NCBI GenBank assembly: GCA_011884725.1
Contig: GCA_011884725.1_3919.1
Source: a phage
Length of the DNA: 64,000 bases
Reading direction: 5' to 3' (one strand)
The notes under the pieces were generated by a model. It saw nothing but the letters and a program-made list of their open reading frames with translations. It made no database searches and was not told where the DNA came from. Position 1 is the first letter of the stretch. Every line of letters begins with the position of its first letter. Made by a program: the position numbers and the translations under genes. Below, piece by piece: positions 1 to 50,058 of the stretch.

Positions 1-2
1 TT

Positions 3-527
3 AACCTATATACACAGTTGGATGTTGGGAAGTGTGCATCATACCGATACTTAGTGGAGTCACTAGAAAAACTCCGTAAATTTTGCTGGATGCACAACAT
101 TCGTAAGATTGGTTTACCCATGATTGGTGCAGGTATCGGTGGTTTAGACGCACAAGCTGTGAAAAGCCTCATTAATAGCGTTATGTACAACGTTGATGTG
201 TACCTATACGTCTATGATGAAGCAATGGCAACTGTAGTTACCCCTAAGTATGCCACCTCAGCACCACAATTCTATGATGGTGTCGTGCTAAGTGACGGTA
301 AGTCTAACCATGTTACCCTCTATCAGCTTGTTGATGGTAAGGTCGAGGCTAGTTACCCTCTGGTTAGTGAGATGGGTATGTGTAATAGTGAAATGTTCTC
401 AATTGACCCGTTTGGTAGATACGAAGGGGTGTTCTTTGATAGCTACCCAGCAGCATACATCTACACAACAAATCAGGATGAAGTTCACTACTTGCTGTAT
501 TCTAAAAAGTTCAAATTCATAAACTAA
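3..527 (+). CDS. macro-domain-like protein, 5' end probably cut by window edge
   Basis: Frame open to window start (listed TTG start at 18 is probably internal). Motif LEKLRKF..NIRKIGLPMIGAGIGGLD resembles the macro-domain phosphate-binding loop (cf. IAFPAISTGVYG). Confidence 0.4.
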   Translation, partial: NLYTQLDVGKCASYRYLVESLEKLRKFCWMHNIRKIGLPMIGAGIGGLDAQAVKSLINSVMYNVDVYLYVYDEAMATVVTPKYATSAPQFYDGVVLSDGKSNHVTLYQLVDGKVEASYPLVSEMGMCNSEMFSIDPFGRYEGVFFDSYPAAYIYTTNQDEVHYLLYSKKFKFIN

Positions 528-923
528 TTAGTGCTTCACAGCACCTATAATTAATCTAAGAAGGCCGCCTAACCCATTGAAAAATTTAAGGTAAGGCAGC
601 CTTTTTCATTTTCAATTTGTGCAGGTAGCTGTATAGGTCTGCACAGGTGTCTCAAAAAATCTCATCGCCGGATAGAAAAATCATTTTCAAAACGTGCAGA
701 CTCCGCTCAGGTCGGGCAAGAAAAATCATTTTAGAATTGTGCAGGTAGGTTTTTATGGGGAGCCAGACCAACCCCTCTCCCCCTATTACTCCCCCTCTCC
801 CCAAAAGTCAAGAGAAAAATTTGTAGCGGATTGAAAAATAATTCTTGATTTGTGTTCTGTTTTGTGGTAGTCGTGTGCGCACGTTTCATTACAGTTTTTC
901 CAAAAATATTTTTAAAATTTTTC

Positions 924-952
924 TTGACTCTTTGAACGGGGTTATCTAGTAT
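924..952 (+). promoter_or_regulatory. sigma70-like promoter of early gene array
   Basis: TTGACT (924-929), 17-nt spacer, TAGTAT (947-952), directly upstream of the first conserved leader module. Confidence 0.5.
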
Positions 953-3730: not shown

Positions 3731-4273
3731 ATGAAATGCTTTCACGGTACTACTCAAGAAAACTTTATCAACCTGATTAATAACGGTGATAAACCATCAG
3801 GTGTATGGAATTGTTCGGATATGGACGGCAATTTTTACGTGTACCCAGAAAATAAACTCTATGGTGATGATGAGGAAGAGATAGCATCGGAAGGTATCCA
3901 GCAAGCTCTAGGAAATGCCACTATCACGGCAGCTTTTCAGATGAAAACTCAAAATATTGTTATCTTAGAACTTGACATTCCAGAGGATGAGCTAAATGAT
4001 GATTATTCTTGTGATAACATGTCAAATATAGCAAGCTTTACAGAGTACTTTGATGTAAATTGGATTAAAAAGGTCTATACAACAGAGTTCAACGCTATGT
4101 ATTCACCTTTTTGTCTCCCTTCACTGGATAACCCAAATTTAAATTATCTTGATGAAACATTGGAGCTACTTGCTAAAAGTATCCAACAATCCGACAGTAT
4201 TCAGGTTTTTTGTGACATCATGGATACACTGACAGAAAACATTGTAGAGAGTGATTTAAAGGTCTTTTTCTAA
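3731..4273 (+). CDS. hypothetical early protein
   Basis: 180-aa ORF with conserved RBS. Confidence 0.7.
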   Translation: MKCFHGTTQENFINLINNGDKPSGVWNCSDMDGNFYVYPENKLYGDDEEEIASEGIQQALGNATITAAFQMKTQNIVILELDIPEDELNDDYSCDNMSNIASFTEYFDVNWIKKVYTTEFNAMYSPFCLPSLDNPNLNYLDETLELLAKSIQQSDSIQVFCDIMDTLTENIVESDLKVFF

Positions 4274-6449: not shown

Positions 6450-8010
6450 TATAAAGAGACTCTATACAGTCCCTTTCCTTTCCTTCCTAGAATCTATCCC
6501 ACTAATTCGATAGAGACTATCTCATACCTTAAAAAGCAATAACTCTATAGTCTACTCTATAACCTCTTATCAAATCAACTTAAATATAAGCCCATAACCC
6601 GAAAGGGAAGGGCAACCACTAAAACGCTCTATAAAGCTCTATAACAGCCTTATCAATCTAACTTAAGCAATCATATTAACCTACTCTAAAAAGCCCTTTA
6701 TAGAGCTTCCCAGAGCCTTAAAAGAATCTTATAAGGGTGTAAGCTTTATTATCTCGTTAGCTATCTTGTGAACTACTAAAAAGGGCTTGTTAGTGTCTTA
6801 AAAGTATGTTATAGGGGCTATAAAGTTACTTCAAAGTTACGTAAAAGGGGCTATAAAGTTACGTAAATGCTAGCCCCCTTAACATTTTCTTAACAATTTC
6901 TTAACAATCCCTACATAGTTATGCTTTTAAGGCACTTGTTAGAGACTTGTTAGCCCCTTGTTAAATCTCTGTTAAGACCACGTAAAAGCCTTGTAAGAGT
7001 CTTTAGCATAGCCTTTAAAGCCTCTGTAAAGCCCTATAAAGAGGTGTCTGTATAGTTGGGGTGTAATTACTAGGAAGAGACTTAAAAGAGCTTACAAGGA
7101 GCTATAGAGAGCTTTTAAGAGGGCTATTTAGAGAATCACTAAGAGGGAAAGGGAACGATAAGAAAAGAGATAGTGACCATGTTAATAGCTTGTTAAAAAG
7201 ATTAAACACTTGTTAGGAACTTGTTAATTATCCCTACAAAATAACTCTTTAAAATTAACTTGTTAGCTCTTGTTAGTCATCTGTTAAGATTCTGTAAAGC
7301 CTATGTATCAACTGTTAAGAAACTGTTACACCCTTGTTAGTTCTGTTAAGAATCTGTTAAGACCTCTGAAGAGATGTTAAGAAGATGTGAGAACTGTTAA
7401 GGAATTGTTAATGATATTTTAAAATTTTGCAAAGTACTTGTAAGGGAGTTGTTAAGGGCTACCAAGCAGATATACATCTTCTACAGATATTTTTCAGTCC
7501 CTTCAAAGACCCTAAAAAATGACTTGATAGTCCTATTTTATAAAAATTTTAAAATTCTGAATAATTACCTATACAGTCTTTTAAAAATACAGGTAATAAC
7601 AGGCTTATAAGATACCTTGTTAGTACCGTGTTAGACCTTGTGAGATAAGGTCTGTAAAGATATTCCTGTTAAGTTTGTTAAAACAGTCTATATAGAGGCT
7701 TAGTATTTCCTAGTGAACACCTATAGAGGGTAACATAGCTAACCTAGAGATTAAGAGGTGTATAGGAGCTTCTAAGAGGGTGTAGAGAGATGGTTAAGGT
7801 GATTGTATAGGTTGTTAAGAAGGCTTGTTAGAAGAGTGTTTAGAAGGGCTATACAGAGGGGCTATTAAGACCACTAGATAGATACTAAGATACTATATAG
7901 TACTATATAACTATATAGAGAGTAAGATTAAGAAGGTTGTTAAGAAGGGTAGATATTTTATTCACATATGATGGTGACCCAGCGGTTGGGACAACCGATA
8001 AATTTTATAA
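6450..8010. repeat. ORF-free region with dense phased short repeats (iteron-like)
   Basis: No ORF of 60 aa or more in any frame; more than 30 copies of (C)TTGTTA(A/G) and CTGTTAAG, several CTATAAAG, tandem GGGGCTATAAAGTTAC x2 (6817, 6846); spacing in 7261-7410 is multiples of about 10-11 bp. Confidence 0.75.
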
Positions 8011-49728: not shown

Positions 49729-50058
49729 TTAATCTGCCAACCTTAAATTGAAATTAACACCAAATTTTTCACATACTTCCAACATATACTCAAGGGAAAC
49801 ATTCCCAGTGAGGTGGATTATGTTGGATACACGAGCCTGAGAGATACCACAAATTTTAGCAACTTGCTCTTGAGAAAGACCTCTTGATTTAATCTCTCTC
49901 TTAAAACGATGTGCAACAAAGTCTCTCATTTCGTCTACATCCATTGGACAAATATAACTCTCCATTTCAGCCTCTCTATCAGCCTCCCAATCATCTTGTG
50001 GGGCATAAGGGTCAAAAACCTCATTCATCTTTCTTCTTCCGTTTGCGTGAAGTGTCAA
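49729..50058 (-). CDS. helix-turn-helix DNA-binding protein (XRE-like)
   Basis: LSQEQVAKICGISQARVSNI is a classic HTH signature. Confidence 0.6.
   Translation of the reverse strand: MTLHANGRRKMNEVFDPYAPQDDWEADREAEMESYICPMDVDEMRDFVAHRFKREIKSRGLSQEQVAKICGISQARVSNIIHLTGNVSLEYMLEVCEKFGVNFNLRLAD

Follow-up and report, generated by a model that had tools for sequence, protein, structure and literature searches.

Conserved direct repeats and a dimorphic C-rich tract in a putative control region upstream of the small early genes of Felix O1-like phages

Introduction

Felix O1-like phages are classic typing phages and widespread agents of phage therapy and biocontrol. How their transcription is temporally regulated is, according to the Felix O1 genome paper, not known, and the literature searched contained no description of their replication origin and no usable transcript, start-site, or footprint records for these phages. 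The question raised by the locus described here is what function is served by a non-coding stretch in front of their small early genes, in which direct repeats are followed by a tract of cytosine runs. Other direct repeats and promoters are listed in the genome papers of Felix O1 and UAB_Phi87, these repeats not among them, the wV8 GenBank record has no repeat feature annotated over the repeats, and in public records the stretch is annotated as hypothetical small ORFs, a terminator, or a promoter. The repeat motif, its conservation throughout the subfamily, and the existence of a G-quadruplex (G4) and a non-G4 allele of the adjoining segment appear to be undescribed in the literature searched.

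Results

Genomic position and anatomy of the non-coding gap

The DNA analyzed is a stretch of 64,000 nucleotides (hereafter the window) from a member of Felixounavirus (Felix O1/wV8-like). A megablast search with its first 3 kb matched 251 phage records at 85–98% identity, nearly all of them Felixounavirus (wV8, Felix O1, and relatives). The repeats and the C-rich tract are located in a non-coding gap of 490 nt, which is bordered downstream by the ATG at 1016 of the first of a series of small rightward genes, each placed after a repeated cassette of promoter and ribosome-binding site; this small-gene array extends for ~6 kb up to the right terminal repeat. The features of the gap and of the gene upstream of it are the following.

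18–527, plus strand: macro-domain gene (ORF), the 3' end of which borders the gap upstream
558–606, plus strand: intrinsic terminator of the macro-domain gene, a hairpin followed by TTTTT (602–606)
601–628, plus strand: repeat copy 1, CTTTTT-TCATTTTCAATTTGTGCAG-GTAG, core 606–624; conserved in all lineages
638–645, plus strand: CTGCACAG, an inverted TGTGCAG half-site forming a 7-bp palindrome with 619–625
675–699, plus strand: repeat copy 2 of the window, GAAAAA-TCATTTTCAAAACGTGCAG, core 681–699; equivalent to copy 3 of four-copy relatives
720–748, plus strand: repeat copy 3 of the window, GAAAAA-TCATTTTAGAATTGTGCAG-GTAG, core 726–744; equivalent to copy 4 of relatives
749–802, no strand assigned: variable segment of 54 nt, here the C-rich allele; two alleles of equal length among relatives
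772–802, both strands: tract predicted to be G4-capable (minus) and i-motif-capable (plus), with a mirror repeat; within the variable segment 749–802
783–811, minus strand: candidate leftward promoter, TTGACT (811 to 806), 17-nt spacer, TAATAG (788 to 783); PWM 6.0
803–826, no strand assigned: AAAAGTCAAGAGAAAAATTTGTAG, with 88% invariance the best conserved block of the region
833–873, plus strand: promoter-like element, conserved A/T tract and TTGATT (845–850), 17-nt spacer, TAGTCG (868–873); poor −10, PWM 4.4
901–952, plus strand: main rightward sigma-70-type promoter (predicted), A/T-rich upstream element, TTGACT (924–929), 17-nt spacer, TAGTAT (947–952); PWM 12.0

Judged from sequence, the region 603–815 is the upstream half of a putative non-coding control module that is kept across the subfamily Ounavirinae. 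The module lies between the terminator of a long rightward operon, of which the macro-domain gene is the last gene, and the host-RNA-polymerase promoters of the small-gene array. The element at 558–606 has the stable G+C-rich hairpin, the U-run, and the position downstream of a gene that characterize intrinsic terminators (RNA fold of −19.3 kcal/mol, z −4.08, followed by UUUUUCAUUUU), its T-run at 602–606 doubling as the A/T flank of repeat 1. The wV8 homologue of this terminator folds at −28.7 kcal/mol (z −7.5), and a rho-independent terminator is annotated there in both wV8 and Barry. The promoter at 924–952 is the only strong sigma-70-type promoter of the gap and is conserved in all lineages. 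Both the repeats and the tract are located before the predicted rightward start sites, in the interval from the terminator to the promoters. They are not part of the early transcript, and the term early leader, under which they were placed in the initial annotation of this DNA, is inexact. The A/T-rich halves upstream of the two rightward promoter elements, at 833–854 and 901–922, are 73–82% identical to the repeat family, the higher value being that of the element at 833–873.

The position relative to the end of the genome was determined from annotated terminal repeats. That of Pr103Blw, annotated as 581 bp, maps to positions 6873–7463 of the window at 89% identity, and that of UAB_Phi87 was determined experimentally to be 608 bp (PMC4837284). 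The distance from position 800 to the right end of the terminal repeat at 7463 is 6.66 kb, corresponding to ~7.6% of an 88-kb genome, and the region of repeats and tract lies ~6.7 kb from the right end in a record starting at the terminal repeat. No conserved ORF spans the region. A 23-codon proline-rich ORF at 755–826, with a Shine-Dalgarno-like AGGTAGG upstream, was rejected as a small protein, its ATG being ATA in most relatives, and the wV8 "gene 13" and a minus-strand ORF of Pr103Blw were rejected as genes, both of them spanning indels that are not multiples of three.

Sequence and arrangement of the repeats

Read directly, the repeats are TCATTTTCAATTTGTGCAGGTAG (606–628), AAAAATCATTTTCAAAACGTGCAG (676–699), and AAAAATCATTTTAGAATTGTGCAGGTAG (721–748), each copy comprising 24–28 nt with its flanks and the copies being spaced 75 and 45 bp from start to start. 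The consensus TCATTTT-N2-A-N3-GTGCAG has three exact copies in the window. The pattern TCATTTTNNANNNGTGCAG is matched perfectly at 606, 681, and 726, in agreement with the three direct repeats that had been reported at about 605–748, and it has no other match in the 64 kb on either strand, even when up to two mismatches are allowed. That 13 specified bases are matched exactly three times within 140 nt cannot be due to chance. Each site is composed of two blocks, TCATTTY and GTGCA, which are ~12–13 bp apart from center to center and not symmetric, and a 5-bp A/T tract (A5 or T5) flanks every site. No dyad symmetry was found, and the sites are asymmetric direct repeats that do not overlap any promoter core: the end of the nearest site lies 97 bp before TTGATT (845) and 176 bp before TTGACT (924), and the sites as a group are positioned ~180–320 bp upstream of the strong rightward promoter. 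The inverted half-site at 638–645, the palindrome of which has a DNA fold of −7.2 kcal/mol (z −3.1), is present only in the window and in contigs L006 and L023, indicating that it is specific to the sub-lineage of the window.

Scans with the consensus sequences of host factors (DnaA, IHF, Fis, CRP, and sigma-54) gave nothing above the genome-wide rate; for DnaA boxes in 520–1020 at one mismatch, 1 was observed and 1.27 expected. The repeats were also considered as sigma-70 promoters and rejected as such, since none of the registers gives a conserved −10 and their plus-strand scores do not exceed 4.1. Neither strand is predicted to fold above the level of shuffled sequence (z of −0.28 for the plus strand and −1.13 for the minus strand), and no Rfam family reached its gathering score, the best match being 17 bits versus a required 46. 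A structured RNA or a known RNA family was dropped for lack of both an Rfam match and a folding signal on either strand.

Conservation of the repeats among relatives

Four copies of the repeat, spaced by 73, 39, and 43–45 bp, are present in wV8, Barry, Felix O1, and most other relatives, and one copy has been lost in the sub-lineage of the window. The alignments of most relatives to the window begin at exactly 681, the first base of a repeat core, so that the repeats also mark a mosaic junction. The layout of terminator, four repeats, C-rich tract, GTCAAG block, and promoter is common to Felixounavirus, Suspvirus, and Mooglevirus, and the same architecture is found in Kolesnikvirus, a genus of Erwinia phages, even though the upstream gene is only 43% identical at the protein level. 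The four Erwinia copies, at spacings of 37, 37, and 39 bp, read (T/A)5-TCATTTY-N6-GTGCATAG and are followed by GCCCACCCTCCCCTCTACC and later by a UP-type promoter. In an unclassified 88-kb contig without a DNA relative among GenBank phages (L044), five copies follow that contig's own macro-domain gene, bringing the range of copy numbers to 3 to 5. The bipartite core shared by these five lineages (Felixounavirus, Suspvirus, Mooglevirus, Kolesnikvirus, and L044) consists of the A/T tract, TCATTTY, N6, and GTGCA, and in every lineage it lies downstream of the macro-domain gene and ahead of the early genes.

When 24 distinct sequences were aligned, 67–75% of the columns were invariant in the repeat cores, the best conserved copy being copy 3 of the window (copy 4 of relatives) at 75%, compared with 10–30% in the spacers. 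In a complete genome of 87,639 bp, the motif does not occur outside these four positions, and every copy is on the plus strand. A scan of 2.9 million viral contigs for the paired-motif pattern returned only this subfamily with two exceptions, L044 and one unrelated contig whose match may be due to chance. A contig from outside the subfamily that carries the core twice (L041) was not counted, since its 50-nt tandem repeat would double a single chance match. The invariance of the cores compared with the drifting spacers, together with the confinement of the motif to a single locus, indicates purifying selection on a unique, oriented cis element. The flank of the repeat switches between A5 and T5 both among copies and among orthologous copies, and the distance from the last site to the promoters differs by 4–10 bp among lineages.

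The C-rich tract and its predicted structures

The sequence of 772–802 is CCCC-TCT-CCCCC-TATTACT-CCCCC-TCT-CCCC. The window contains 53 runs of at least four cytosines, and four of these fall within the 31 nt of the tract. The minus strand, read from 802 to 772, is GGGGAGAGGGGGAGTAATAGGGGGAGAGGGG, with four runs of four to five guanines and loops of 3, 7, and 3 nt. The canonical four-run G4 motif that had been claimed for this strand was recovered by G4 prediction as the sole G3+(N1–7)×4 motif on both strands of the 64 kb; among first-order Markov simulations of 64 kb, 5.5% contained any G3+×4 motif. The motif has a G4Hunter score of −2.42, the most extreme in the window (the next being +1.68), and the best 25-nt segment scores −2.32; an absolute score above ~1.5 denotes high propensity. 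The two 12-nt arms of the tract, read directly, form a perfect homopyrimidine mirror repeat, and no competing Watson-Crick structure or hairpin was found in the tract on either strand. When the leftward RNA was folded with G-quadruplexes allowed, a G4 was placed in it (−25.3 compared with −18.4 kcal/mol). Predicted structures of the tract are a G-quadruplex, an i-motif, and a triplex.

Relatives have one of two unrelated alleles, both of 54 nt, between the last repeat and AAAAGTCAA. The C-rich allele (A) is carried by part of Felixounavirus and by all Suspvirus and Mooglevirus sequences examined, and the four-run C3+ motif is kept in 15 of its 16 distinct variants, which come from three genera and differ in runs and loops; in Kolesnikvirus a shorter C-rich tract follows the repeats. 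Allele B, GGGTGCAGGTGGGGATGTCGCC...GGCTACCACATCTGAAAAG, lacks the G4 motif and is found in 140 of the 256 database records in which the flanks are present. Not a single G3+×4 motif occurs in a complete allele-B genome, and phages with this allele are viable and commonly isolated. The replacement of the tract by an unrelated non-G4 allele in so many records indicates that it is dispensable and not essential. The occurrence of the tract in related phages, on which the initial annotation had let its proposal depend, is therefore divided between Suspvirus, Mooglevirus, and part of Felixounavirus, where it is present, and the allele-B records, where it is not. From this distribution the tract is old, with its C-richness maintained wherever it is present, but a viable phage can do without it.

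The 31-nt tract contains six independent ends of contigs or records (L007, L039, L010, L042, EC106, and LMP34), which shows that its DNA behaves abnormally during library preparation or sequencing. L007 and L039 are the two ends of one 89-kb contig and meet inside the tract, whereas EC106 and LMP34 are GenBank records that end in it. One pair of ends in the tract overlaps by 9–10 nt, resembling a Tn5 target duplication. A genome terminus or pac site had been prompted by two IMG/VR contigs that start inside the tract with remains of Nextera adapters, and it was dropped: the terminal repeat is located ~6 kb away and the two ends of one contig join inside the tract, so that these contig starts are assembly breaks. 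Public assemblies break repeatedly at the tract, and owing to it ~215 bp, promoters included, are missing from at least one "complete" GenBank genome.

A candidate leftward promoter

On the minus strand, the invariant block at 803–826 reads as an A/T-rich stretch followed by the TTGACT listed above, and its GTCAAGnGA is retained in the Erwinia phages ~38 nt upstream of the promoter −35. The −10 that accompanies this −35 in the window, TAATAG, lacks the final T, and the resulting score of 6.0 is indistinguishable from background; all C-rich alleles have TAATAG or TAAGAG at this position and score 6.0–6.3. In allele B the element is TTGACT-17-TGgTAGCCT (PWM 13.1) and in an Erwinia phage TTGACG-18-TATACT (PWM 12.2), scores that are comparable with that of the main rightward promoter (12.0) and rank with the 27 best sites (at least 12) in 128 kb, both strands counted. 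Judged from these matches, a leftward transcript through the repeats is plausible in many relatives and doubtful in the window. If such a transcript exists, the G-runs of allele A would make up the promoter spacer and the first transcribed bases.

Discussion

The repeats are best explained, with a probability of about 40%, as an oriented array of sites for a DNA-binding protein that controls the adjacent promoter cluster. The three repeats, or four in most relatives, would constitute a row of sites in one orientation for a single sequence-specific DNA-binding protein, and we infer that the bound array may form a nucleoprotein complex that determines how active the neighboring promoters are or when they are active; the promoters concerned are the rightward one at 924–952 and, in many relatives, also the strong leftward one with its −35 TTGACT at 811–806. 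The C-rich tract would in that case be a variable spacer between the last site and the invariant block and would not be required. This reading is favored because the cores are kept in five lineages while the spacers drift, the locus is unique, all sites have one orientation, and promoters are adjacent. The distance of ~12–13 bp between the invariant blocks and their asymmetry make the repeats suited to a protein contacting two successive major grooves. The swaps between A5 and T5 flanks, together with the absence of RNA structure, point to recognition on DNA rather than on RNA, and the swaps themselves fit a readout of DNA shape and not an RNA signal. The binder is probably encoded by the phage. 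The one annotated regulator in the genome, an Xre-type helix-turn-helix protein (49732–50028), was not adopted for this role; proteins of its class usually bind palindromes, and the sites are non-palindromic. The earlier proposal that the repeats are operator or host-factor sites governing the early array draws support, at the level of sequence, from the same conserved, unique, and oriented cores next to promoters, but the sites are not palindromic, lie off the promoter cores, and match none of DnaA, IHF, Fis, CRP, and sigma-54. Several properties also count against such an array of binding sites. There is no overlap with a promoter core, the spacing is irregular in Felixounavirus (39–45 and 73–75 bp), and the distance from the last site to the promoter varies among lineages. 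In the Erwinia phages the spacing of 37–39 bp is equivalent to ~3.5 helical turns, which would place neighboring sites on opposite faces of the helix.

An origin of replication fits the same anatomy almost as well, and as an explanation in its own right we consider it possible, on the unlikely side. The repeats would then be iteron-like or origin-organizing, the A/T-rich sequence at 803–925 would be the unwinding element, and transcription from the adjacent promoters would activate or prime replication, in the manner of T7 and T4; with the C-rich allele, a G-rich leftward transcript could form a stable R-loop or a G4 primer. Four direct repeats of the same orientation at a single genomic locus, adjoining a very A/T-rich stretch and promoters on both strands, are in line with this, as is the G-rich tract downstream of the leftward promoter-like element in allele A and the Erwinia phages. 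T7-like replisome genes are annotated (a fused primase/helicase, DNA polymerase, exonuclease, and ligase) without an annotated initiator, and origins of the T7 type are transcription-activated. Unlike classical iterons, however, the repeats are not in helical register, their spacing being irregular or 3.5 helical turns. DnaA boxes do not exceed chance, and no initiator is annotated in the Pharokka-annotated genome. Allele B would give a C-rich and not a G-rich leftward RNA, so the R-loop part cannot be general, and the leftward promoter of the window itself is weak (PWM 6.0). GC skew tracks the direction of the genes and is uninformative on an origin. It is unlikely that array, G/C-rich tract, and divergent promoters together make up a replication origin or, alternatively, a T5-like entry checkpoint ~8% from the right end; in the origin version, a leftward host-polymerase transcript may give rise to an R-loop or G-quadruplex primer, by analogy with ColE1 RNA II and mitochondrial CSB II, and the organizer of the origin may be a phage protein that binds the repeats. 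Distinctly unlikely is a leftward non-coding RNA from a promoter with its −35 at 811–806, which would run through the G-rich tract and then antisense to the repeats; the repeats would in that case act in the RNA, where they might, for instance, be modules to which a host RNA-binding protein binds repeatedly. The minus-strand TTGACT and the A/T-rich stretch upstream of it form the most invariant block of the region (88%), a good −10 is present at 17–18 nt in allele B (13.1) and in the Erwinia phages (12.2), and the predicted transcript would include all repeats. In the alleles of the window and of all C-rich relatives, however, the −10 lacks its critical final T (PWM 6.0–6.3), the predicted structure is not significant (z −1.13), and the A5/T5 swaps would result in very different RNAs. 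The plus-strand G-U pairs of the wV8-type terminator become A-C mismatches on the minus strand, indicating that it is built for rightward transcripts; the minus-strand hairpin of the window's own terminator folds as well (−22.2 compared with −19.3 kcal/mol), but without a U-run.

The tract could itself be the regulator, folding into a G4, i-motif, or H-DNA on the supercoiled, freshly injected genome and modulating the flanking promoters. We regard this as quite improbable despite a very strong prediction (G4Hunter −2.42), a G4 placed in the leftward RNA by folding at the energies given above, the retention of a four-run C3+ motif by 15 of the 16 distinct C-rich variants, which span three genera, a shorter C-rich tract in the Erwinia phages too, and the six independent assembly or record ends inside 31 nt; 140 of 256 records carry the non-G4 allele, a complete allele-B genome is free of G3+×4 motifs, and these phages are viable. 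Very improbable is an entry checkpoint as in phage T5, for which the repeats would be the inner boundary of a first-entering segment made up of the small-gene array and the right terminal repeat. The position ~7.6% of the genome from the right end is close to the 7.9% of the T5 first-step-transfer segment, and the small genes behind strong host-type promoters resemble a pre-early region, but two-step transfer is not reported for Felix O1-like phages, the paired DnaA boxes and large inverted repeats of T5 are absent, with just a 7-bp lineage-specific palindrome in their place, and the terminal repeat of ~0.6 kb, compared with ~10 kb in T5, does not contain the array. The repeats might also be functionless relics of a tandem duplication of promoter-upstream sequence, in keeping with the membership of the A/T-rich upstream halves at 833–854 and 901–922 in the repeat family (73–82% identity), the copy number of 3 to 5, and a mosaic junction exactly at a repeat core. 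This too is very unlikely, because the cores stay near-invariant across lineages in which the spacers diverge and the flanking genes are 43% protein-identical or without detectable DNA similarity.

Arrays of directly repeated binding sites are a familiar kind of element, and for these phages a short, unique, subfamily-wide cis element is now defined at the boundary of the early-gene array. Its precise motif (A/T tract, TCATTTY, N6, GTGCA) can be used directly as bait for the factor that binds it, and the natural pair of G4 and non-G4 alleles in otherwise near-identical genomes offers a ready test of the effect of a G-quadruplex in a virulent phage.

Among known systems, promoter-proximal G4 and H-DNA motifs resemble the tract in having four runs of four to five guanines and a perfect homopurine/homopyrimidine mirror repeat within 50–120 bp of promoters, whereas the tract, a predicted G4, is not conserved throughout the genus and is an allelic alternative to a non-G4 sequence. 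In T5, the first-step-transfer segment comprises 7.9% of the genome, and the stop signal for injection lies in a conserved, repeat-rich, untranslated region of ~1.2 kb with nested inverted repeats, palindromes, and eight paired DnaA boxes, inside the 10-kb terminal repeat (10.1101/866236). In the present locus, simple direct repeats take up ~200 bp, DnaA boxes are absent, and the terminal repeat measures 0.6 kb and lies 6 kb away. Both regions nevertheless consist of conserved untranslated repeats that border a block of small genes with host-type promoters on its inner side, ~8% from an end of the genome, and both are conserved better than the neighboring genes. The iteron arrays of lambda ori, P1 oriR, R6K, and RK2 oriV likewise contain 3–5 direct repeats of ~19–25 bp in one orientation at one locus, adjoined by an A/T-rich stretch and a G+C-rich cluster and with promoters nearby. 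In contrast to iterons, the phage sites are spaced by 37–75 bp, out of helical register, are bipartite and asymmetric with an interchangeable A5/T5 flank, and are accompanied neither by DnaA boxes nor by a recognized initiator gene. The Fis sites upstream of rrnB P1 and the p4 sites of phi29, the latter located between the early and late promoters of that phage, differ from the present repeats in their Fis consensus and p4 inverted-repeat form, respectively, and in that the phage sites lie as far as 180–320 bp upstream. With these two arrays the repeats share the arrangement of several sites upstream of a strong promoter of the UP-element type, placed between divergent promoter-like elements at the early/late boundary of a virulent phage.

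Assembly breaks at the C-rich tract and the physical genome ends

The 31-nt C-rich tract, which is G-quadruplex-capable on the minus strand, contains six independent ends of contigs or records.

Sequence ends inside the C-rich tract
772-802: contigs L007, L010, L039 and L042; GenBank records ON210138.1 and MK482690.1

The Nextera adapter is fused to some of the six ends, and one pair overlaps by 9-10 nt, as a duplicated Tn5 target site would. Assemblies break recurrently at the tract, which could result from missing coverage, from a hot spot for tagmentation or from heterogeneity in length. The record of phage EC106 (ON210138.1; L030 and L031), which is labelled a complete genome, starts in the C tract and ends in the first early gene, and it lacks ~215 bp, the promoter region among them. 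The physical genome ends lie elsewhere inside the window, because non-coding positions 6873-7463 are homologous, at 89%, to the direct terminal repeat that is annotated, with a length of 581 bp, in phage Pr103Blw. This region holds 19 copies of TGTTA[AG] compared with 0.9 expected, as well as 9 of the 18 copies of CTTGTTA in the window, and these copies may be packaging recognition sites.

The repeat core at a mosaic junction and in other contigs

A mosaic junction is present in window 1-681, where the alignment of most relatives begins only at position 681, where a repeat core starts. A minority, comprised of BPS17L1, pSJ21, ECML-1, Si3, EcoM2 and phiWec177, carry the same version as the window from the macro-domain gene's 3' half through the terminator to repeat 1. 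The repeats may have a role as recombination points. In the IMG/VR contig L045, phage sequence passes directly after a repeat copy into unrelated G+C-rich sequence over the last approximately 190 nt, and this contig is probably a chimeric assembly. The core also occurs in L041, an unrelated 10-kb viral contig, in which two 50-nt tandem repeats located upstream of a promoter (reverse complement, about 3880-4010) carry AATCATTTTAACATAGTGCAG. The core in these repeats is identical to that of the window repeats, a match that could be due to chance.

For the 88-kb viral contig L044, no DNA relative was found among GenBank phages. On its minus strand at 1-1200, a macro-domain gene is followed by five copies of AAAWTCATTTYAAAAACGTGCATAGG, next by ~230 nt of TTAACA repeats, and finally by a promoter and early genes. 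No second TTAACA-rich stretch is present in the contig, and the TTAACA repeats resemble the terminal-repeat motif of Felixounavirus.

Promoter-like elements, early-gene cassettes and a regulator gene

Two promoter-like elements combine a good -35 with a 17-nt spacer and a -10 hexamer ending in G. This final G is kept across genera and is unusual for sigma-70.

-10 hexamers of the promoter-like elements
845-873, rightward: TAGTCG, TATTCG, TAGTTG or TATGTG
783-788, leftward: TAATAG or TAAGAG

In a related genome with annotation, only an Xre-type helix-turn-helix gene is labelled as a transcriptional regulator; in the window this gene is positioned among replication and nucleotide-metabolism genes.

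Regulator gene
49732-50028, minus strand: Xre-type helix-turn-helix gene, 99 aa

Between the small early genes, repeated cassettes (1385-1490, 1764-1870, 2845-2940, continuing to about 6140) consist of a promoter with a stem-loop, TTTACA..GGGGCTTA, together with CCTAAAYTGGAGAWTC ahead of each ATG. Within the array the stem-loop promoter motif is found at three positions and the ribosome-binding-site motif CCTAAAYTGGAGAWTC at eight. These cassettes, annotated in the relative wV8 as DR_1 to DR_9, are similar to the promoter-early stem-loops of T4-type phages.
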